A stretch of 18,268 nucleotides of DNA, taken from Nitrosomonas europaea. Lineage in GTDB: Bacteria > Pseudomonadota > Gammaproteobacteria > Burkholderiales > Nitrosomonadaceae. A program made the position numbers and the translations under genes. How positions within the stretch are numbered: position 1 is the first letter of the stretch; each line of letters opens with the position of its first letter. The notes under the pieces were generated by a model. That model was given only the letters and a program-made list of their open reading frames with translations, was not told where the DNA came from and did not search any database. The DNA lies in NCBI RefSeq assembly GCF_900167395.1, contig NZ_FUWK01000047.1:1-18268 (forward strand), in the 5' to 3' direction. Positions 3,091-18,268 of the stretch are shown here, in pieces.

Positions 3091-4017
3091 CTAGTCGTTG
3101 TGCGTTTGCGCCTGGGTAATCAGGCTGCCGGGGGGTACGCTGCGTGTCAGCCAGACATTACCACCGATGGTGGAACCGTGCCCGATGGTAATACGTCCCA
3201 GGATGGTTGCCCCGGCATAGATGACGACATCATCTTCAACGATGGGGTGGCGGGCGATTCCTTTTACCAGTGTGCCGTTTTCATCTACCGGGAAATGTTT
3301 TGCACCCAGAGTGACAGCTTGATACAGGCGTACGTTTCTGCCGATGATGGAAGTTTCACCGATGACGACACCAGTACCGTGGTCGATGAAAAAACGTTCG
3401 CCGATCTGTGCACCCGGATGGATTTCGATACCGGTTTGCGAATGAGCGATCTCCGAAATCATACGGGCGATCAGCGGCATATTCAGTTGATACAGTTCGT
3501 GTGCCAGCCGGTGCCAGGTAATGGCAGCAACACCTGGATAACATACCAGTACCTCATCGATTCCCCGTGCTGCCGGATCACCTTCATAGGCAGCCAGAAC
3601 ATCACCATCGAGCAGGCGGCGGACTGCAGGCAGCCGTTTAGCAAATGCCTGGGTGATTTCAGCCGCTTGCGCATAAGTTTCCTGATCGAGCTCTTCGGTT
3701 CCCGAGTTGAAGTGCAGCTCGTGCTGAATCTGGACCAGCAGGGCGCGTAACGTTGAATTCAGGATATGGCCGACATAATGGTCGACTCCTTCCACTGCCA
3801 GATCAGAAGGTCCCAGTCGATTGGGGAACAAGGCCGTGCGCAGGCCTTCGATGACCCCGGCCAGAATTTTGCGGGAAGGCAGCCGGGGCGGCTTGAGGTG
3901 CCCCTGCCGGTCGAGAAGTGCGGTAGTGCGTACATTACGCAATTCAGCCACGACTTCGTTGATCTGCAAATGCGTGCTCTTCAGCAGCAAATCGCCTGCA
4001 ACACTGATATCTGTCAC
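3091..4017 (-). CDS. cysE: serine O-acetyltransferase (long form with N-terminal helical domain)
   Basis: The SAT N-terminal domain is followed by left-handed beta-helix hexapeptide repeats: IEIHPGAQIGERFFIDHGTGVVIGETSIIGRNVRLYQAVTLG...IVEDDVVIYAGATILGRITIG. Confidence 0.9.
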   Translation of the reverse strand: MTDISVAGDLLLKSTHLQINEVVAELRNVRTTALLDRQGHLKPPRLPSRKILAGVIEGLRTALFPNRLGPSDLAVEGVDHYVGHILNSTLRALLVQIQHELHFNSGTEELDQETYAQAAEITQAFAKRLPAVRRLLDGDVLAAYEGDPAARGIDEVLVCYPGVAAITWHRLAHELYQLNMPLIARMISEIAHSQTGIEIHPGAQIGERFFIDHGTGVVIGETSIIGRNVRLYQAVTLGAKHFPVDENGTLVKGIARHPIVEDDVVIYAGATILGRITIGHGSTIGGNVWLTRSVPPGSLITQAQTHND

Positions 4018-7762: not shown

Positions 7763-8703
7763 GCCTGATTATCAGTGGAAGAGGGAGTCGTACCGCCTTC
7801 TTCGTTGCCATGACTGATCTGCTGGTAAATTTCCTGGATGCAGTCGAGCAATCCCTGGCCCAGATCGACATGTTCATTGAGCACGAGTTTGCGGCCGACA
7901 CGTGGTTGAAATGCATAAGGCGTGATCTGATAATGGTGCCCCGGTTTGGCCTGATCGTAATGCAGATCGACATTCCAGGGTAACATTTCTGAAATCATGG
8001 TCATGACATCGCGTATGCGCAGCTTTTCCTGCCCGGTCAGGATCAGGTGCCGGTTGGCAAATTCCGGGGCGAGAATCTGCACGCTCATCCGTGCAGCATC
8101 CTCGACGTGGATGTATTCCCTGATCGATTCTCCACTGCCACGATAAGTGATGGCACGCTGCTGTATGGCTTCGTGCAGCATACGGTAGATACCGTTCCGC
8201 CTGTCCGAACGCCGGCCGTACAATGATCCGTAGCGCAGGATGGTATATTCCAGTCCATAACGTTCGTGATAGGTTTCGGTGAAGCGTTCAGCTGCCTGTT
8301 TGCTGGCACGATAAAAAGAACCGGTTTCCGAATAGACATATACGCTGCTGGCAAAGATGAAGCGGCGCACTCCTGCAAGCCGGGACGCCTCGAGCGCATG
8401 CATGTTGCCGAGTACATTGATGCTGGCTGTACCGAGCGGGTTGTCATGGGCTTCATCGATATCGGCGATGGCCGCAAAATTGTAGACGGCAGCAGCGCCC
8501 TGAACAGCATTGGATACCTGGCTGATATCCATCAGATCGCCGATGATCATTTCCTGATCGGATCGCCGGAACGGGGAGGGGTTACGGTCGAACAGGCGTA
8601 CCTTGTAGCCCGCATTGGACAGGGCATCAGCGACATGGCTGCCCAGAAAGCCGCCTGCGCCAAGTACGACAGCCGTTTGTCCGGGTTGTATCGTTTCACT
8701 CAT
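7759..8703 (-). CDS. NAD-dependent epimerase/dehydratase (extended SDR)
   Basis: A Rossmann motif VVLGAGGFLGSHVADAL and the catalytic motif YRASKQAAE (YxxxK) are present. At 314 aa it fits the family. It has a 4-nt overlap with the HAD gene and an 8-nt overlap with the dehydrogenase gene. Confidence 0.8.
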   Translation of the reverse strand: MSETIQPGQTAVVLGAGGFLGSHVADALSNAGYKVRLFDRNPSPFRRSDQEMIIGDLMDISQVSNAVQGAAAVYNFAAIADIDEAHDNPLGTASINVLGNMHALEASRLAGVRRFIFASSVYVYSETGSFYRASKQAAERFTETYHERYGLEYTILRYGSLYGRRSDRRNGIYRMLHEAIQQRAITYRGSGESIREYIHVEDAARMSVQILAPEFANRHLILTGQEKLRIRDVMTMISEMLPWNVDLHYDQAKPGHHYQITPYAFQPRVGRKLVLNEHVDLGQGLLDCIQEIYQQISHGNEEGGTTPSSTDNQA

Positions 8704-9631
8704 CGATCAGACCTGCTTCGATCAATCCCTGCTTCAGATTTTCTGCAGCTTCGATCTCCATACGCTGCCGGGTTTCTCGCGCCAGTGAGCCGATATGGGA
8801 AGTCAGTATCGCCTGTTTACATTCGCATAAAGGCCCGTGATAGGGTTCCTGCTCAAAACTGTCCAGAGCAGCAGCTTCGAGATGGCCGGTATTCAGTGCT
8901 GCACACAAGGCAGTTTCATCGACCAGCCCGCCACGGGCGGCGTTGATGAGGATCGTTCCCGGTTTCATACGATCAATGGCTTCGGCATCGATCAAATAGT
9001 GAACTGCCGGGGAATAAGGCAAATGAAGGGTAACGAGATCAGCCTGTTCGAGCAGGGTAGTCAGTGCAACGAGTTCGACGCCGTCAGGCGCCAGTTGCAA
9101 ATGGGGGTCATGCGCGATGACCTGTGCGCCGAATGCCTGACATAATTTCGCAACTCGCCGTCCGATATGGCCGAGCCCGACGATGCCGACTGTGCGTGCG
9201 GCCAGCAGCCTTCCTTGTGAACGAGGCCATTCCCCCTGGCGTACGGAGCGGTCGATACGGTTGATCTGGCGCAGGCAGTCGAGCATCAGCCCCAGTGTCA
9301 GTTCTGCAACAGCCTGTGCCGGGGCCTCAGGTGTGTTGGAAACTTGGATGTTCAGCCGCCGGGCAGCTTCCAGATCGACATTATCCATGCCAGTGCCGCA
9401 GCGCGCGATGACGCGCAAAGCACTGGCGCTTGTCAGCACATGTTCCGTAAGCGGTTCGACTCCTGCCAGCAGGGCAACGGTGTCATTGCCCAACAGGGTG
9501 ATGATTTCATCTTCGGTGAGTTTGCGCTGGTAAGGATTGCCGGTGATGGTGAAACCTTGTGCGCGCAGCTGCTGTATGGCCGGATTATGATCGAAGCCGA
9601 AAGATGAAGTGGAAACGACGATTTTACTCAT
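8696..9631 (-). CDS. D-isomer-specific 2-hydroxyacid dehydrogenase (phosphoglycerate-dehydrogenase-like)
   Basis: GIVGLGHIGRRVAKL (NAD binding), LINAARGGLVDE and SHIGS (catalytic His region) are present. Its start overlaps the aldolase stop by 4 nt. Confidence 0.85.
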   Translation of the reverse strand: MSKIVVSTSSFGFDHNPAIQQLRAQGFTITGNPYQRKLTEDEIITLLGNDTVALLAGVEPLTEHVLTSASALRVIARCGTGMDNVDLEAARRLNIQVSNTPEAPAQAVAELTLGLMLDCLRQINRIDRSVRQGEWPRSQGRLLAARTVGIVGLGHIGRRVAKLCQAFGAQVIAHDPHLQLAPDGVELVALTTLLEQADLVTLHLPYSPAVHYLIDAEAIDRMKPGTILINAARGGLVDETALCAALNTGHLEAAALDSFEQEPYHGPLCECKQAILTSHIGSLARETRQRMEIEAAENLKQGLIEAGLIDE

Positions 9632-10389
9632 ACAGGCGCTTTGATGATGTTCAGATGGTTACGGCAGAGAGAATCGAGCATGCGGATATCCAGACTGTAT
9701 CCCAGAAAGGTGAAACCCTGTTCGATACGCTGTTGCAGCATGGCCGGATCGGGTTCGATGACATGAACTCCGCCTGCCTTGTGATGACGGATTCCGGCCT
9801 GGAGTATCTGCCGGATGGCCGCCTGGACATCAGGATGCTCCAGCTCACCCGGTCGTCCCATCGACCCTGACAAATCATAGGGGCCAATGATATAGGCATC
9901 GATACCGGGGGTGGACAGAATCGCATCGATATCTTCGATGGCCTGGATATGTTCGATCATCGCGATGACGACGGCGTTGTCACGCAACCATTGCCGATAT
10001 GCCTGAAAAGCTGAACCGTAGCCCTGAGCGCGTGCCAGCCCCACACCGCGGGTGCCTTCAGGCGGGTAATAAACGGCATTGACTGCAGCACGGGCATCTT
10101 CCGCGGATTTGATCATGGGTACCATGATCCCGCTTGCACCGGCGTCCATGACACGTTTGATCTGATCGGGGTGATTGGAAGTCAGCCGCACGATGGCCGG
10201 ACATTGCTGTCCATCCAGTACCTGAATGATGGCCTGTACTTCACTGAGTTCCAGCACACTGTGTTCAGTATCGAGCACGAGCCAGTCGAAACCGGCTTTG
10301 GCCATGATTTCGGCAATCGAGGGATGACCTAGGGTGATCCATGAACCGATGGTCAGTTCGTGGCGGGCGAGTCGGGTTTTTAATGACAT
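9628..10389 (-). CDS. HpcH/HpaI family class II (metal-dependent) pyruvate aldolase
   Basis: The protein is 253 aa. GSWITLGHPSIAEIMAKAGFDWLVLDTEHS, MVPMIKSAEDA, PEGTRG and IGPYDLSGSMG match 2-keto-3-deoxy-acid aldolases of the HpaI/GarL/RhmA type. Confidence 0.8.
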   Translation of the reverse strand: MSLKTRLARHELTIGSWITLGHPSIAEIMAKAGFDWLVLDTEHSVLELSEVQAIIQVLDGQQCPAIVRLTSNHPDQIKRVMDAGASGIMVPMIKSAEDARAAVNAVYYPPEGTRGVGLARAQGYGSAFQAYRQWLRDNAVVIAMIEHIQAIEDIDAILSTPGIDAYIIGPYDLSGSMGRPGELEHPDVQAAIRQILQAGIRHHKAGGVHVIEPDPAMLQQRIEQGFTFLGYSLDIRMLDSLCRNHLNIIKAPV

Positions 10390-10408
10390 GGGAATTCCGG
10401 TCAGTATG

Positions 10409-11167
10409 TCAGTATTTTCGGTATTCAGCCAGCAGCGGATCAGTGGCCATCAACCCTGCGACACGTATCAGATCAGCTTCGGTATCGACTGCCTGCGTGT
10501 CATGACTGGTTTCCACCATTCTGACATGATGGCCATGCTCCATCAGGCGCAGCATATCGATCGATTCAAGTTGTTCCAGCGGCGTGGGTGGCAGCTGACT
10601 GTATTCAATCAGGCAGGTGCGCGTAAATGGAATGATACATACCTGCTTGTAGACAGCAGTTGCGCCAAAGCCGCCGGGAGCCAGTGTCGGAATCGGCTGG
10701 CGGGTCATGTACAGTGCATTTCCCTGCTGATCCATGACGACCTTGATGGTATTGGGATTGCGAAAATCGGTTTCATCGTCGATACGTCGTGTCAGATTGA
10801 CGCATTCCAGTTCCGGATCAGTGTGGAAAGGTGCCACGGCGGTATCGATCATGGCAGGGTGAACCATTGGTTCATCTCCCTGCACCATGACGATCAGATC
10901 GGCATCGGTGTGTGCGACGGCTTCCGCGATGCGGTCGCTGGCCCGTTCGTGACTGTCGGAGGTCATGATGACGGGCGCTCCAAAGGCGGTTGCGGCCTGC
11001 CGGATCGTTTCATCGCAGGTGGCGATATAAGTCGCACTGAGCGACTTGCTCATAGCAACACGCTGGTAAACATGCTCCAGCATGGTGTACCCCAGCAGTT
11101 GGGCCAGCGGTTTGCCGGGAAAGCGTGATGAGCCCATGCGTGCCGGAATGATGGCGATTGTTTTCAT
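10409..11167 (-). CDS. KdsB-like 3-deoxy-manno-octulosonate (ulosonic acid) cytidylyltransferase
   Basis: From ATG 11167 the protein reads MKTIAIIPARMGSSRFPGKPL...VQGDEPM...NPNTIKVVMDQQGNALYMTR...LEQLESIDMLRLMEHG...VDTEADL. It is colinear with E. coli KdsB and has 252 aa. The 28 codons upstream in the listed ORF are not family-like. Confidence 0.8.
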   Translation of the reverse strand: MKTIAIIPARMGSSRFPGKPLAQLLGYTMLEHVYQRVAMSKSLSATYIATCDETIRQAATAFGAPVIMTSDSHERASDRIAEAVAHTDADLIVMVQGDEPMVHPAMIDTAVAPFHTDPELECVNLTRRIDDETDFRNPNTIKVVMDQQGNALYMTRQPIPTLAPGGFGATAVYKQVCIIPFTRTCLIEYSQLPPTPLEQLESIDMLRLMEHGHHVRMVETSHDTQAVDTEADLIRVAGLMATDPLLAEYRKY

Positions 11168-11351
11168 GATTGTGAATTCGGGTGGGTAACTGAATTTACA
11201 GAATGTAATGAAGCAAGTGGAATAGGTCCTGTCAGCAAGATGAATGAACACTGCTGTAAAGTGCCGGGTAGGAACGTTGTGTACTTTTATAATGATGCAT
11301 TTTTGCAGGTATCATATTTCCCCCGCCAATGCGTGGCATGATAACACAGCT

Positions 11352-12644: not shown

Positions 12645-12671
12645 ATAAACGATGCAATCTTGCAGGGTGCG

Positions 12672-13453
12672 ATGGGTAATCTATTCTCGATTGGTTTTCT
12701 GAAAAACCTGGTGGTAGCAGGTTATGTAGTCAAGGGGGGTACTAAAACTGTTCGTGTCAGAGGCTATCCGATACGGTTGACGGTGGATCACTGGCGTGTA
12801 CTCAGACGTATTCGTACTTATTCCATCAAAGAACCGGATACGCTGGACTGGCTTGACAATATCGAGCCTGGTTCATGTTATTTCGATATCGGTGCCAATA
12901 TCGGCCAATACTCGCTTTATCCAGCCATAAAATTGGGTCATGACATTCGTATTTTTGCCTTTGAGCCGCAGAGTAATAATTACTATGCGTTGAATAAGAA
13001 TATTTATCTGAATGATTTGAAGGACCTGATTACCGCGTATTGTGTAGCGATAGGCGGTACAAACGGTTTCGATAAGTTATATGTACCCAAATTCATTCCT
13101 GGCGGAACCGTTCGCAATTCGGACAGGAATCCATAGATGCTATGCGAGCACCGACTTCCCATATTCAGGGAATGTTTGGCGTGACGCTGGACGATTTGTG
13201 CGGTAGATGGGGGTTTCCGTATCCCAATTATATTAAGATCGATGTCGATGGTATTGAAATCCCGATTCTTAAAGCAGCCACAAGTGTTTTGAAACACCCC
13301 AATCTTCAATCTGTCATCGTCGAATTAGGGACAGATGCTGAGCAGCAGGCGGCTTCGGATATCATGCAACAGGCCGGTCTGAAATTAAAGACAAAGACCA
13401 CCCGGAACTGGGGTGAAACATGTTGTTTGTTTGAACGGAATCCAGCGGCATAA
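12672..13453 (+). pseudogene. FkbM-family SAM-dependent methyltransferase, split by a frameshift near 13076-13136
   Basis: ORF 12660..13136 carries the FkbM N-terminal motifs CYFDIGANIGQYSLY and FAFEPQSNNYYAL. ORF 13142..13453, in a different frame, carries the C-terminal motif YIKIDVDGIEIPILKAA. The second frame is open back to 13076, so a single indel would explain the split. Confidence 0.7.
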
Positions 13454-13514: not shown

Positions 13515-14795
13515 TTGAGAAATCAGATTGTATTGAATTGGCGTGATCTGCTGGCAAAGTTTGCGCTGGTATTTTTTTGTTTCACACTGTGGCCAAAAGG
13601 GGTGATTTACTGGGGAATGGGTATGCTGGTTATTGCCTGGCTGGCAGATGGGGGGATATCCAGACTCTCCGATCTGATTAAAGAACCCTTAGCTCTGGGC
13701 GTCCTGTTGTTTTGCGGTGTATGGGTGCTTGGCCTGTTATGGAGCGATTCCGCAGTGATTTTCCAGGGAAAGTGGAGAAAATATTTTATCCTGTTGACGT
13801 TCATCCCTCTGTTCTCCCTTTTAAGCAGGGAACGTTTACCCTGGGTGACTGGAGCACTGCTTTGCAGTTATCTGGGTATGGTGATACTGGGCAGTTATCA
13901 ATGGGCAATGCAGGAAATGCAGGGAATTTCCTTGCTTGGCATGTCCTATTTACACTATTCGGCAGCCTTGGGAATTGGTGTCATTCTGGCGGTTTTTCTG
14001 GGTTGGGAAACATTATCGAGAGAAAAGAGATGGTTGTCGGTTCTGTCATGGCTGATAGCCATATTGCTGTTATTTCTCCAGTTCAATCAGAGTGCGAGAG
14101 GGATACTGCTTGCCACCCTGATGGCACTGTTACTGATGATCGTTTTGCGATACCGGGCGGAATGGAGAATGCTGACGGGCGGTTTGACTGCAATCATGGC
14201 CATGGTCATCTTGTTTGCCACCAGCAGTGATATTTTTCATGACAGGCTGCAGCAGGCTGGCACAGATTTGCGATCTTTCCAGCAAGGGGACTATCAAACC
14301 AGTGTGGGTTACCGGCTTGCAATGTGGGATGTCGGCCTGCATGGCATTGCTGAACATCCGTTGCTGGGACATGGCTCCGGTATGGCAAAAAAGTATTTTG
14401 ATGACAGCATCATCACTTATAAGCAGGGAATCTACAGAAATCTGCCGGAGTTTCAGGAAACTGCACATTTCCACAATGAATTGATCGAGATTGGTATGCA
14501 TCTCGGGTTGCTGGGTATACTGGCCTTCGTGTTTTTACTATGGTGCTGGTTTCAGATTTTCAGGCAAAACCGGATGGCCTTGTTAGGTAGTGCAATCGTG
14601 TGTTTCATTTGCATATCCGGATTGACTGATACTTTTTTGTTATACAGTGGAACTCCGCCATTTCTGCTGACAGTGACAGCCATAGCCGTTTGTTGGCGGA
14701 AATACAGGGAAGACCCTGACAGAATCGGGCAGAAATATACGAGCGGTGAGAGGAATGGAAATCAGAATCCGCAAATGTTTTTGATGAGTGCCTGA
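13515..14795 (+). CDS. O-antigen ligase / polymerase family protein (Wzy_C domain)
   Basis: This is a polytopic membrane protein with NQSARGILLATLMALLL, a large periplasmic loop, and AHFHNELIEIGMHLGLLGILAF (the H-x-x-N-E motif of WaaL/Wzy_C proteins). The start is uncertain: 13515 is a TTG without an obvious SD. Confidence 0.75.
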   Translation: MRNQIVLNWRDLLAKFALVFFCFTLWPKGVIYWGMGMLVIAWLADGGISRLSDLIKEPLALGVLLFCGVWVLGLLWSDSAVIFQGKWRKYFILLTFIPLFSLLSRERLPWVTGALLCSYLGMVILGSYQWAMQEMQGISLLGMSYLHYSAALGIGVILAVFLGWETLSREKRWLSVLSWLIAILLLFLQFNQSARGILLATLMALLLMIVLRYRAEWRMLTGGLTAIMAMVILFATSSDIFHDRLQQAGTDLRSFQQGDYQTSVGYRLAMWDVGLHGIAEHPLLGHGSGMAKKYFDDSIITYKQGIYRNLPEFQETAHFHNELIEIGMHLGLLGILAFVFLLWCWFQIFRQNRMALLGSAIVCFICISGLTDTFLLYSGTPPFLLTVTAIAVCWRKYREDPDRIGQKYTSGERNGNQNPQMFLMSA

Positions 14796-14825
14796 CCGTG
14801 CAGATTTCCCGGATTTTCACTGCTG

Positions 14826-15488
14826 ATGAACCGGATAGTATTGATGATTGTTGACCCGATCATCGAACATTACATGCACACACTGGCGAGACGGTCTGAT
14901 CACCCGGTTCTCGATGAGATGGAAGCGTTTGCGCTGGAAAAAAGTTTCCCGATCGTCGGCAGGCTTGTCGGCATCTCGCTGGAGATTTACGCAAAAATGA
15001 TTGGAGCGCGCAGGGTTTTCGAGTTTGGCAGCGGGTATGGGTATTCTGCCTACTGGTTTGGCAGGGCAGTCGGGCCTGGTGGGCAGGTTGTCTGTACGGA
15101 TAGTAATCCGCTCAATCGGGAACAGGCGGAACAATACCTCGCTGCTGCCGGGTTGTGGGAGAGGGTGAGGTTCTGTACAGGCTATGCTCAGGACATATTT
15201 GGCCAGACAGATGGGAATTTCGATATCTGCTACAACGATGCCGATAAAGGGGGGTATCCCGATATCTGGCTGATGGCCCGAGAACGAATCCGCTCTGGTG
15301 GTTTGTATATTGCCGACAACGTATTGTGGCATGGCTGGGTCGCTGTGGAAGATTCTGCAGATGCCAAACCGGACTGGACAAAAGCAATCAGAGAGCATAA
15401 CCGGTTGATTTTGACAGACCCGGAGTTTGATGCCTTTATCAACCCAACCCGTGATGGCGTTATCGTGGCACGTAGAAAAATGGCATAA
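14826..15488 (+). CDS. class I SAM-dependent, cation-dependent O-methyltransferase (family 3, caffeoyl-CoA OMT-like)
   Basis: VFEFGSGYGYSAYWF (SAM motif I), YNDADKGGYP and IADNVLWHG (D/D/N metal ligands) are present. The start could be 14826 or ATG 14844. Confidence 0.8.
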   Translation: MNRIVLMIVDPIIEHYMHTLARRSDHPVLDEMEAFALEKSFPIVGRLVGISLEIYAKMIGARRVFEFGSGYGYSAYWFGRAVGPGGQVVCTDSNPLNREQAEQYLAAAGLWERVRFCTGYAQDIFGQTDGNFDICYNDADKGGYPDIWLMARERIRSGGLYIADNVLWHGWVAVEDSADAKPDWTKAIREHNRLILTDPEFDAFINPTRDGVIVARRKMA

Positions 15489-15532
15489 TAGGTCAGTATT
15501 CGGCCGTTTCTGTTTTTTTACCATTTCTTGTC

Positions 15533-15538
15533 AAGGAG
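15533..15538 (+). promoter_or_regulatory. Shine-Dalgarno sequence AAGGAG for the DUF2024 gene
   Basis: AAGGAG lies 8 nt upstream of ATG 15547. This supports choosing 15547 rather than the 15427 start of the listed ORF. Confidence 0.5.
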
Positions 15539-15546
15539 AGTTTTTC

Positions 15547-15804
15547 ATGCAAATTCATGTATACGATACCTATGTCAAAGCCAAAGACGGGCATGTTATG
15601 CATTTTGATGTATTCACTGATGTCAGGGATGACAAAAAGGCTATTGAATTTGCAAAACAATGGCTTTCTTCGATCGGAGAAGAAGGGGCAACCGTAACCA
15701 GTGAGGAATGTCGCTTCTGCCACAGCCAGAAAGCACCTGATGAGGTGATTGAAGCAATTAAACAGAATGGCTACTTCATTTATAAAATGGAAGGATGTAA
15801 CTGA
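15547..15804 (+). CDS. DUF2024 family protein (85 aa)
   Basis: MQIHVYDTYVKAKDGHVMHFDVFT...EECRFCHSQ...GYFIYKMEGCN matches my recollection of the DUF2024 family. It has a strong SD. Confidence 0.6.
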   Translation: MQIHVYDTYVKAKDGHVMHFDVFTDVRDDKKAIEFAKQWLSSIGEEGATVTSEECRFCHSQKAPDEVIEAIKQNGYFIYKMEGCN

Positions 15805-15875
15805 TAAACCACGGGTAAACGGCCCGCACCCGGATGTCGGGCCAGACTATGCCGATAATTATGGAGTCTGATGCA

Positions 15876-16394
15876 ATGAGACGGATATTCGCAAAAGTAC
15901 TGATGCTGTCAGCCGTTTCTTTTATGACAAGTAATCTGGTACAGGCTGCTGATCCTGAGGTAATCGGGGAGTTCGATGACTGGATTGCCTATGTTTACAC
16001 GGAAGACAGCAGCAAGGTTTGTTATATGGTTGGCAAGCCTAAGAAAGAGGAAGGCAACTATACTAAGCGTGGAGCAGTTTATGCACTGGTTACGCACCGT
16101 CCTGCCGAGAAAAGTAAAAATGTGTTCAGCTTTGTTGCGGGCTATCCTTATAAGCAGAGCAGTGAAGTGACGGTCAGCATTGGTAATCAGCGTTTCAAAC
16201 TGTTTACCCAGAATGAGACTGCATGGGCGCCTGATTCGGCAATCGATAACAAACTGGTAGCAGCGATACGCGGAGGCAGTCAGATGGTGGTAAGTGGAAC
16301 TTCCTCGCAGGGAACGGCCACAACCGATACTTTTGGTCTGAAAGGATCAACTGCAGCCTACACTGCTATTTCCAAAGAATGTGGGATCAAGTGA
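15876..16394 (+). CDS. secreted IalB-like (invasion-associated locus B family) protein
   Basis: A signal peptide MRRIFAKVLMLSAVSFMTSNLVQA/ADPE is followed by FDDWIAYVY...KVCYMV and a C-terminal FGLKGSTAAYTAISKEC, the pattern seen in IalB-family proteins. The start was chosen at the Met preceding the signal peptide. Confidence 0.5.
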   Translation: MRRIFAKVLMLSAVSFMTSNLVQAADPEVIGEFDDWIAYVYTEDSSKVCYMVGKPKKEEGNYTKRGAVYALVTHRPAEKSKNVFSFVAGYPYKQSSEVTVSIGNQRFKLFTQNETAWAPDSAIDNKLVAAIRGGSQMVVSGTSSQGTATTDTFGLKGSTAAYTAISKECGIK

Positions 16395-16403
16395 GATGGA
16401 TAC

Positions 16404-16751
16404 ATGGGCGATAAAATAACCATTTATCAGAAACCAACCTGCAGCAAGTGCCGTGAAGCTTTGTCCATTCTCAAAGAAAGTGGCAGAGAGTTTGATAGTA
16501 TCAATTATTATGACGACCGGCTGACGGTCGAAGTGTTACGTGAGCTCGTGCGTAAACTGGGTATTTCGGTGAGAGATCTGTTGCGTGCAGATGAACCGCT
16601 TGCTAGAGGTACGGAATCAGTGGATGACGATGAGCTGTTACGGCTGATGGCGGCAAATCCTGATCTGATTCAACGCCCGATCGTCGTTCGGGGTGACAGC
16701 GCAGTACTGGGACGACCACCAGAAAGAATAAAAAAGCTGCTGGATAACTGA
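16404..16751 (+). CDS. ArsC/Spx/MgsR-family (thioredoxin-fold, arsenate-reductase-like) protein
   Basis: ITIYQKPTCSKCREAL (an N-terminal CxxC as in Spx-type members) and LIQRPIVV are present. At 115 aa it is colinear with ArsC-family proteins. Confidence 0.75.
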   Translation: MGDKITIYQKPTCSKCREALSILKESGREFDSINYYDDRLTVEVLRELVRKLGISVRDLLRADEPLARGTESVDDDELLRLMAANPDLIQRPIVVRGDSAVLGRPPERIKKLLDN

Positions 16752-16776
16752 GTTAAGACTGACTCAATAGCTTATT

Positions 16777-17845
16777 TTAACCAGGTTCAGTAACAGAGTC
16801 TAGTTTTGCAGCTTGTTTGAGTAACAAAACTTTAAGGTTCTGCCATTTTCCCCAGGCAGTCAGCAGTGTGCGAAGAAAGAAGGGAGTTTCCGGTGCGATC
16901 CAGATTTCTGTAACCTGTCTGTCTGCACGTTTCCAGCCTCGCAGCAGGATTCTGACTGCCGAGTACAAATTCAGATCATGGTTGTATATTTGCAGACTGG
17001 TTAACCGGCTTGAGCGTGCTGGTGTTAGCCAGTGAACATAGCCGCCATCGTGAAGAACCTGATCTATAGTACTGATAAGTTCTTCACCAAGATCTGTCAG
17101 TGCGCAGTTGGTTGTAAGTAACAGTAGGTTTTGCTGTGCTTTCGGGTAACGAGACAGATAAACAGCGCGGTTGTGCCGGGATAATGGGAAGCGATCATCA
17201 CCAAATGATCCCCCCTTTTTGTGGTGAATATGAGCTTCGGGGTGGACTCCGAAACGCCAGCCATTGAGATCAAGACGACGCCCAAGATCGATATCTTCGT
17301 AGTACCCGCGACCGAAGATCGGGTCAAATCCACCGATTGCGAGGAAAATATCGCGACGTATCAGGAAAGCATGTCCGCGTAAATAGTAGGTGCGGATATA
17401 GTTGCCGGGATACAGTGCATAACGGCCAAGGTCGAAATTGTCGTAACTGTTTCCTGCGGGAACAATGGCCGCCAGCTTCGGATCTGCGTCAAAAGCAGAG
17501 CAGAGCAGAGCAGAGGAGGGGCAGGATATTGTGTTTGACCTCAGTGTCAGAGTTGAGAATCAATACATAAAATGCATCAGACCGGCTGACAGCTGTATTG
17601 ACTGCTGTGCCGAAACCCTCATTCTTTTCTGCGTGAAAAACTTCCACACATGAGTAGGGCAGATGATCCAGCATTGCACGTGTTTCACTGTCAGATGCAT
17701 CATCCTGGATGAGTATCCTGTGTATGGATTTCCCGAGATGAGTAATGACGGAATCAATACAGCGCCTGGTTAGAACAGGTGCATTGTAAACCGGTATTAT
17801 GACGTCAATACGTTTTGAGCAAGATCGTGCTGTTTCGTCCAGCAT
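16777..17845 (-). pseudogene. family 2 glycosyltransferase, reading frame interrupted at a pentanucleotide repeat (candidate phase-variable gene)
   Basis: The N-terminal ORF 17489..17845 has IDVIIPVYNAP...ILIQDDASD...NEGFGTAVN...LILNSDTEV (GT-A/GT2 motifs). I translated the minus strand by hand. The frame offset by +1 is open from 17490 down to 16777 and continues the family: DADPKLAAIVPAGN...GHAFLIRRDIFLAIGGFDPIFGRGYYEDIDLGRRL. That frame has no ATG, GTG or TTG until 16968, which is why the ORF track shows only 16777..16968. Confidence 0.8.
17494..17515 (-). repeat. pentanucleotide tandem repeat (GCAGA)4.4 on the + strand, equal to (CTCTG)n on the coding strand of the GT2 gene
   Basis: The sequence reads directly as a-gcaga-gcaga-gcaga-gcaga-g at 17494..17515. 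The stop codon of the upstream GT2 ORF (17489-17491) lies 2 nt past the repeat. Confidence 0.9.
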
Positions 17846-17937
17846 AGCTTGGGAACCGGCTTTATGAGAGGAGAGTTTTCTTTCTGCAATGCAGGGACAT
17901 TGTAGAAATACTCATTGCTTCAGGTGTAGTAGTTGAG

Positions 17938-17985
17938 ATCTGATCTGACAGTTACCCGATTTGACGAGTGCCTGTTAGATCAGAT
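17938..17985. repeat. imperfect inverted repeat / hairpin just downstream of the transposase stop, possibly an IS-terminal structure
   Basis: 17938-17951 (atctgatctgacag) pairs with 17972-17985 (ctgttagatcagat). The stem is 14 bp with one mismatch and the loop is 20 nt. No T-tract follows. Its role is not established. Confidence 0.3.
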
Positions 17986-18268
17986 TCAGTTATTCAATTC
18001 GGTAATTTTATCGTCCCATATCTCCTTAGCGTCAATTAAAGTTTGCATCGGGGTGCGTCCACAGCACATTTTTCCCTGGTGAGTCCGCACACTGTTGTAG
18101 TACGCCATCCAATCATCCAGATCGTGTTGTAACTCTTCAATGGACTGGTAAATCTTGCGCCGGAATGTCACCTGGTAGAACTCCTGCAAGATGGTTTTGT
18201 GAAAGCGTTCGCAAATACCGTTGGTCTGCGGATGATTGGCTTTCGTTTTGGAATGTTCGATGTCATTG
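17986..18268 (-). CDS. rve-domain DDE transposase, IS481-like, C-terminal part, truncated by the right window edge
   Basis: The frame is open to the window end. The translation is NDIEHSKTKANHPQTNGICERFHKTILQEFYQVTFRRKIYQSIEELQHDLDDWMAYYNSVRTHQG. HPQTNG-x-x-ERFH contains the catalytic E region of retroviral-integrase-type transposases, and the C-terminal tail pattern is as in IS481-family entries. Confidence 0.6.
   Translation of the reverse strand, partial: NDIEHSKTKANHPQTNGICERFHKTILQEFYQVTFRRKIYQSIEELQHDLDDWMAYYNSVRTHQGKMCCGRTPMQTLIDAKEIWDDKITELNN

Follow-up and report, generated by a model that had tools for sequence, protein, structure and literature searches.

We analysed a stretch of 18,268 nt from Nitrosomonas europaea (contig NZ_FUWK01000047.1; hereafter the window), whose genome we take to be of the N. 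europaea ATCC 19718 type. On its minus strand the window carries a gene for a family 2 glycosyltransferase (GT2), the reading frame of which breaks exactly at a tandem repeat of four CTCTG units, as a preliminary description of this DNA had reported (Table 1). The minus strand around the tract reads ...AATATCCTGCCCCTC CTCTG CTCTG CTCTG CTCTG CTTTTGACGCAGATC..., and Tandem Repeats Finder assigns it 4.4 units (17494-17515) and identifies it as the sole period-5 array in the window. The TGA that terminates the 5' fragment starts 4 nt past the last full unit and 2 nt past a partial CT unit. The fragment upstream of it holds the nucleotide-binding half of the enzyme together with a DXD-like LNSDT motif, and matches Pfam family PF00535. 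The remainder of the enzyme continues stop-free in the +1 frame, again as first described, reading FDADPKLAAIVPAGNSY...GGFD...YYEDIDLGRR... and remaining open down to 16777. Apart from the repeat, this 3' part is that of an intact 352-amino-acid (aa) protein, P0145. The window record and several others annotate the gene as two coding sequences (CDSs), one of 118 aa and the other of 257 or 190 aa.

Table 1. Features of the GT2 locus and its surroundings, in window coordinates.
Feature	Position	Strand	Description
GT2 gene, 3' part	16777-17493	minus	+1 frame, from FDADPKLAAIVP... to KLDSVTEPG and stop; stop-free, no further lesion in the window
G6 run in GT2 3' part	17210-17215	minus	G5 in L002, L003, L110 and L112; G7 in L119
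TTTTGAC	17488-17494	minus	UUU UGA C in the broken frame; resembles a shifty stop
GT2 gene, 5' fragment	17489-17845	minus	118 aa, ending ...NILPLLCSALLCF and stop; ATG at 17845, stop TGA at 17489-17491
(CTCTG)4 tract	17496-17515	minus	four perfect units; ancestral CTCTGCTCTGCT plus 10 nt
C4 run beside the repeat	17518-17521	minus	C3 in L095-L097, an independent frameshift
Insertion sequence (IS) end	17926-18268	minus	between rplS and the GT2 gene, in GT2 orientation; contig ends within the IS
Wzy_C-domain gene	13515-14795	plus	O-antigen ligase/polymerase-like; in most other Nitrosomonas it follows GT2 immediately, on the same strand
FkbM-type (Methyltransf_21) methyltransferase gene	12671-13453	plus	interrupted by the deletion of a single T (between 13105 and 13106)

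The 5-nt unit is not a multiple of three, and changes in its number alter the frame. Rebuilding the gene with 2, 5 or 8 units gave a single in-frame open reading frame (ORF) of 352, 357 or 362 aa, respectively; with 1, 3, 4, 6 or 7 units the frame was lost and the product truncated. The preliminary description had proposed that the gain of one unit or the loss of two would restore an ORF of 357 codons. Both changes do return the gene to frame, and the length of 357 codons holds for five units only, as two units give 352.

The gene product is predicted to be a GT2 glycosyltransferase with a GT-A fold. The family assignment made initially is borne out by the restored protein, which matches PF00535 (Glycos_transf_2) with an E value of 3.5e-20 and 73 bits (cut-off 23.3), and also scores above the respective cut-offs for PF13641 and PF13632. 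The AlphaFold model of P0001, a protein 91% identical to it, has a pLDDT of 89.8 and shows the GT-A fold, and a Foldseek search with this model matched GT-A enzymes (E ~1e-12) at a generic fold level only. A DXD-type motif is present, as LNSDT aligns with LDSDD of the chondroitin polymerase 2z87. An NCBIfam search returned no equivalog at cut-off, and a sequence search of the PDB gave no specific function. The nearest proteins are all from Nitrosomonas, Nitrosospira or Nitrosovibrio; identity across the Nitrosomonadaceae is 50-92%, with many residues invariant.

In the P0001 model, the residues encoded by the repeat lie in a short, confidently modelled helix (108-117) between the DXD-like strand (N98-S99-D100) and a core strand (121-126). 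L108, P109 and L111 of this helix are invariant. LNSD and PxGN are 32 residues apart in all 113 proteins matched at LNSD; two more matches to the regular expression began at an upstream NAD and lie outside this count. Judged from these sequences and the model, the product of a five-unit allele would bear an insertion of five residues found in no orthologue.

Every orthologue that we aligned has a two-unit junction, NILPLLCSAFDADP, encoding NILP-LLCSAFDADP, which is five residues shorter than the five-unit rebuild. The nearest intact orthologue, at locus L010 (~91% nucleotide identity), has CTCTGCTCTGCT, with two units that encode L-C-S-A. Outside the N. europaea group, each full-length orthologue is encoded by one uninterrupted ORF. 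Given the two-unit junction in all orthologues, the window allele is a derived expansion of 10 nt.

To obtain an allele series, we listed the 90%-identity clusters of this protein in a collection of 15 billion proteins and fetched the encoding contigs. The two-unit, in-frame allele encodes the 352-aa P0145, residue-identical to the two-unit restoration of the window gene, and was found at loci L089-L092 (SRR18766857, ERZ795018, SRR28484114 and SRR18779421); L092 matches the window without a mismatch over 1.2 kb. A three-unit, out-of-frame allele (P0124, 159 aa) occurs at L093 and L094 (ERZ27257434 and JGI 3300009687), with 0 mismatches over 1.1 and 0.6 kb, respectively. The four-unit, out-of-frame allele (P0121, 118 aa) is present in 89 blocks of the collection, and the fetched loci share one tract, with L005/L114 (GCA_029557755.1, locus 3326-3350) as the exception. 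There, the tract has the four-unit length and an adjacent CCCTC has become CTCTG by two synonymous changes, giving five perfect units that are still out of frame and yield the same 118 aa. This change may reflect homogenization of the repeat or a consensus artefact of the metagenome-assembled genome. The upstream single-nucleotide polymorphisms (SNPs) of L005/L114 resemble those of the three-unit contigs L093 and L094. A further allele, with two units and one C missing from the adjacent CCCC (P0122, 157 aa), is an independent frameshift found at L095-L097 (SRR16287264, SRR16287266 and SRR16287270, all from one study). These three contigs stop at about one shared point, ~320 nt past the C3 site.

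None of the cluster members had a length fitting 1, 5, 6 or 7 units, and none of the samples examined held two alleles. A scan of JGI metagenomes with both flanks and a variable gap recovered four loci only, three with two units and one with three; the scan missed JGI contigs with a known four-unit allele, and is thus unusable for allele frequencies. The comparison of copy number in related strains that had been suggested at the outset therefore yields 2, 3 and 4 units, differing in 5-nt steps, with 0 mismatches over 0.6-1.2 kb of gene flank.

The preliminary description had considered an assembly error in the repeat to be as plausible as a fixed pseudogene or a switch. Beyond the general difficulty of short repeats, nothing speaks for an assembly or sequencing artefact, and we regard its probability as negligible. 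The 20-nt tract is far below read and k-mer size, and the 118-aa product is recorded on contigs of up to 2,812,094 bp and on chromosome CM135170.1 (2,810,989 bp), as well as in JGI, ENA and Logan assemblies. The occurrence of an identical four-unit allele in many independent assemblies made by differing methods, complete chromosomes included, excludes an assembly error.

In a vectorized null simulation with independent and identically distributed letters, a period-5 tract of at least 20 nt was expected ~2e-5 times per 18 kb of window composition, and none of the 20,000 simulated windows contained one. A tract of the ancestral 12 nt (2.4 units) was expected ~1.2 times per window. Chance therefore does not account for the four-unit tract, which was made by duplication from a two-unit precursor that is itself at chance level. 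The presence of 2, 3 and 4 units in 5-nt steps within otherwise identical sequence is the signature of slipped-strand mispairing, and a slippage origin is supported.

Once formed, the four-unit allele has been stable. Loci carrying it differ from one another by 9 to 113 SNPs per 20 kb, in patchy, recombination-like blocks, and the tract is constant among them; strains ~0.5% apart share the allele as a stable haplotype, acquired by inheritance or by recombination. A separate origin of four units on a divergent background was considered for L102 (GCA_014337965.1, QUBT01000046.1, 3183-4251; protein P0123) and rejected. At this locus the central ~430 nt, including the tract, are identical to the window and both flanks are of the L104/L105 type. 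This mosaic structure indicates that the four-unit allele had a single origin and was spread by recombination.

The tract length is also coupled to a second lesion. Two-unit L089 and four-unit L109 differ by 135 SNPs and by just two indels in 20 kb, namely the repeat and a T deletion in the FkbM-type methyltransferase gene (Table 1). The deletion lies outside any repeat and leaves ORFs of 154 or 158 aa and 103 aa in place of the intact 260 aa of L089. It is present in all eight four-unit loci that reach the methyltransferase gene, and the only two-unit locus to do so, L089, is intact. Since the two-unit allele is ancestral and sits on a haplotype with an intact methyltransferase gene, it is ancestral-like and not a revertant. 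Between the window and L089, nearly all of the 59 substitutions fall within 9344-10916 (~1.6 kb), overlapping ORFs 8696-9631, 9628-10389 and 10409-11251, and this patch suggests a recombination tract.

Several alleles carry additional lesions in the GT2 gene. Loci L002, L003, L110 and L112 combine the four-unit tract with a shortening of the G6 run to G5 and with deletions of 3 and 6 nt. L119 has two units, a TA duplication near codon 23 and an extension of the same run to G7. The G5 and G7 variants lie on one shared 3' haplotype, along with the in-frame 3- and 6-nt deletions. In a comparison of 12 loci over 6.4 kb, every true indel was inside the GT2 gene. We considered whether G5 in L002 and L003 compensates for the expansion (+10 -1 = +9) and rejected this, as three stop codons interrupt frame 0 before the G run is reached from the tract. 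Similarly, P0133 (312 aa) had appeared to be an N-terminally disrupted allele; it has no indel in the gene body relative to the intact L104 type and merely a shorter start call.

The IS upstream of the gene is a later arrival. In L111 it is ~1.2 kb long and encodes an rve-type transposase of 347 aa between imperfect terminal inverted repeats (TGTAGTAGTT...). It is flanked by an 8-bp target duplication, ACCTGAAG, at 17918-17925, placing the insertion 72-80 bp upstream of the GT2 ATG. We found the IS only in assemblies of the ATCC 19718 type, the window included; it is absent in L001-L003, L005, L089 and L109. Because other four-unit strains are without it, the IS arrived after the four-unit allele.

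The preliminary description had offered the repeat as a candidate ON/OFF switch. In such a contingency locus mediated by a simple sequence repeat, the gain or loss of CTCTG units would toggle the GT2 gene between ON (2 or 5 units) and OFF (3 or 4 units), for example in response to phage or grazers. The tract does lie in the CDS of an enzyme for surface glycans and has a unit that is not a multiple of three. ON and OFF lengths occur on near-identical backgrounds in different samples, the three-unit allele is evidence of single-unit steps, and the three-unit contigs end shortly past the tract, which might reflect population heterogeneity. Nevertheless, we consider a working switch improbable. 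The tract reaches 4 units at most (2-3 in relatives), and only L005/L114 has five perfect units, by substitution. PhasomeIt applies a cut-off of at least 5 units for pentanucleotide tracts (PMC6321876), and Neisseria opa alleles with 1-4 units have been classed as non-phase-variable (PMC5953494), in agreement with the initial caveat that four units are short for efficient slippage. The PhasomeIt authors describe mutability as a continuum, in which rates below 1e-5 are inefficient for switching (PMC6321876); the CTCTG tract belongs at the low end.

Reversibility is likewise lacking in the allele series. The sole ON allele seen is the ancestral one, no in-frame allele of five units and no revertant was found among the cluster members, and tract length is tightly tied to the flanking haplotype, including the second frameshift in the methyltransferase gene. 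No sample examined held two alleles. Nor is the gene otherwise intact: G5 accompanies the four-unit tract, and C3 as well as the TA duplication with G7 are found on two-unit alleles, so that some alleles carry lesions beyond repair by a change in the repeat. The preliminary description had named two observations that would count against a switch, a lack of in-frame variants and further inactivating mutations in orthologues as a sign of simple decay. An in-frame variant exists, in the form of the two-unit allele, and further inactivating mutations exist as well (G5 on the four-unit allele; the TA duplication and G7 on a two-unit allele). With the in-frame allele ancestral, no longer or one-unit allele in the clusters, a stable haplotype and these further lesions, the proposal of an operating switch is not supported, although switching at low rates retains a small probability, and the fixed pseudogene mentioned initially as a caveat comes close to the truth.

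Among the closest known systems are the phase-variable surface genes opa of Neisseria, (CTCTT/CTTCT)n, and lic1A, (CAAT)n, and lex2A, (GCAA)n, of Haemophilus influenzae, which likewise have a unit of 4-5 nt within an ORF for a surface structure, where slipped-strand gain or loss of units shifts the frame, and the pyrimidine-rich CTCTG resembles the opa unit. However, their tracts comprise 5 to >20 units and switch reversibly at high frequency, whereas here there are 2-4 units and we saw no reversion. Two further differences are that the ON state here is the ancestral unexpanded sequence, and that the tract encodes part of a core helix of the enzyme and not a signal peptide or a tolerant stretch near the N-terminus. 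In the way it works, the locus is like a contingency locus at its very beginning, but it lacks several of the defining properties of one. It also resembles the interrupted coding sequences of the Mycobacterium tuberculosis complex, where a gene that is conserved elsewhere is broken by a frameshift at a short repeat, the species has both intact and disrupted alleles, extra lesions accumulate and inheritance follows the haplotype (PMC2277376). In contrast to that case, several independent lesions fall here in one glycan gene and another in the same cluster. This concentration suggests loss at the level of the pathway, possibly selected; in the literature searched, such glycan loss is undescribed for ammonia oxidizers.

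Alternatively, the broken frame might be read through. At TTTTGAC (Table 1), tRNA-Phe could slip by +1 on the T4 run, which would return translation to the enzyme frame and give 355 aa with an LLC insertion, leaving the gene leaky or still functional. Of the four elements of the prfB motif, the site shows three (a slippery pyrimidine run, a UGA and a 3' C that favors poor termination), and the frame offset is exactly +1. The programmed +1 site of prfB (RF2), CUU UGA C, is accompanied by a Shine-Dalgarno-like stimulator (PMC12421855). Unlike prfB, the GT2 site has no such stimulator ~3 nt upstream and no purine-rich element; the preceding 30 nt are the CT-rich repeat ...CTCTGCTCTGCTCTGC. The heptamer consists of ancestral Phe-Asp codons read out of frame, a by-product of the insertion that is not conserved as a signal, and the orthologues are all in frame. 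Moreover, four-unit alleles with a second frameshift downstream (L002, L003, L110 and L112) indicate that the product is not maintained in those strains, and the added residues would fall in a helix of invariant length. We consider recoding highly improbable.

Given the analyses presented above, we consider it likely that the GT2 gene is a polymorphic pseudogene made by slippage, within a glycan cluster that is decaying or repeatedly inactivated, and that it is not a reversible switch of high frequency. Full-length orthologues and some conspecific alleles are intact, the lesion is derived and inherited with its haplotype, and extra lesions are present. The sequence states, the allele series, the linkage and the extra lesions are observed; from them we infer slippage as the mechanism, a sequence of events and a selective regime, as follows. 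The starting point would have been the incidental 12-nt proto-repeat CTCTGCTCTGCT (L-C-S-A) in the helix after the DXD-like motif, to which slipped-strand mispairing during replication may have added 5-nt units, from 2 to 3 to 4. The four-unit allele (+10 nt) shifts the frame, so that translation ends at the TGA just past the tract. From then on it would have been a plain loss-of-function mutation, transmitted to descendants and spread by homologous recombination, and would have become linked to the frameshift in the FkbM-type methyltransferase gene of the same cluster. The IS would have landed upstream of the GT2 start codon later, in the ATCC 19718-type lineage, and other strains of the species group inactivated the GT2 gene by different lesions. 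In these lineages the glycan pathway is thus probably one that can be dispensed with, or one that selection disfavors. Selection is plausible, if unproven, given how independent lesions cluster in the GT2 gene.

Several points weigh against this interpretation. The window copy has no second lesion in its GT2 3' part, so that a change from 4 to 2 or from 4 to 5 units would still restore the ORF. Variation between 2, 3 and 4 units in very close relatives is taken as a sign of phase variability in known systems, and by analogy may be one here. The five perfect units of L005/L114 hint at ongoing repeat dynamics. Alleles were read from assemblies, and length variants may be present at low frequency within cultures. 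Finally, the loss could be neutral, the pathway being already dispensable, or selected, for example as the loss of a phage receptor.

A further possibility, to which we assign a small but real chance, is that the CTCTG tract, the C4 run and the G6 run are hot spots for repeated adaptive shut-off of the GT2 gene and its pathway, perhaps with occasional switching back and a low level of enzyme made through the shifty stop. Possible drivers are evasion of phage or of grazers in activated sludge and adaptation to culture in the laboratory or in bioreactors. We keep this idea in view because at least five independent frameshifts have occurred in one gene of 1 kb among strains less than 1% diverged. 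If true, it would be the first contingency-like locus in an ammonia-oxidizing bacterium. The literature that we searched contains neither phase variation nor a described pseudogene at this GT2 locus in Nitrosomonas.

In the N. europaea group, the GT2 gene lies between rplS and a convergent gene of the ArsC family. Four genes beyond is a cluster that encodes the Wzy_C-domain protein, the FkbM-type methyltransferase, a CMP-sugar synthetase-like protein, an aldolase, a dehydrogenase and an epimerase. The adjacency of the Wzy_C-domain gene in other Nitrosomonas (Table 1) suggests that GT2 is tied by context to the synthesis of a surface polysaccharide. Relative to L018-L034, the block from Wzy_C to ArsC (13515-17845 in the window) is inverted in the N. 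europaea group, and as a result rplS abuts the GT2 gene there. The 2-hydroxyacid dehydrogenase gene of the cluster is called as shortened or split products in the metagenome contigs L115 (8370-9170; JGI 3300014786) and L116 (8346-9277; JGI 3300014713), which may represent a further lesion or a sequencing error. A search of the Escherichia coli genome with the region gave no match.

Overall, the N. europaea ATCC 19718 lineage is losing this surface-glycan cluster. The locus should be recorded in annotation as one frameshifted GT2 pseudogene, and not as two CDSs. The recurrent independent inactivation of the GT2 gene is the most interesting point that remains; phase variation is not established by it, and it provides a small hint that selection acts on the surface glycans of nitrifiers. 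Of the enzymes encoded by a Wzy-linked surface-polysaccharide cluster, the model nitrifier N. europaea ATCC 19718 appears to lack two that its close relatives in the environment have kept. The loss of both could alter its lipopolysaccharide or extracellular polysaccharides, aggregation, biofilm behavior and susceptibility to phage compared with wild strains, which matters wherever the laboratory strain serves as their proxy.

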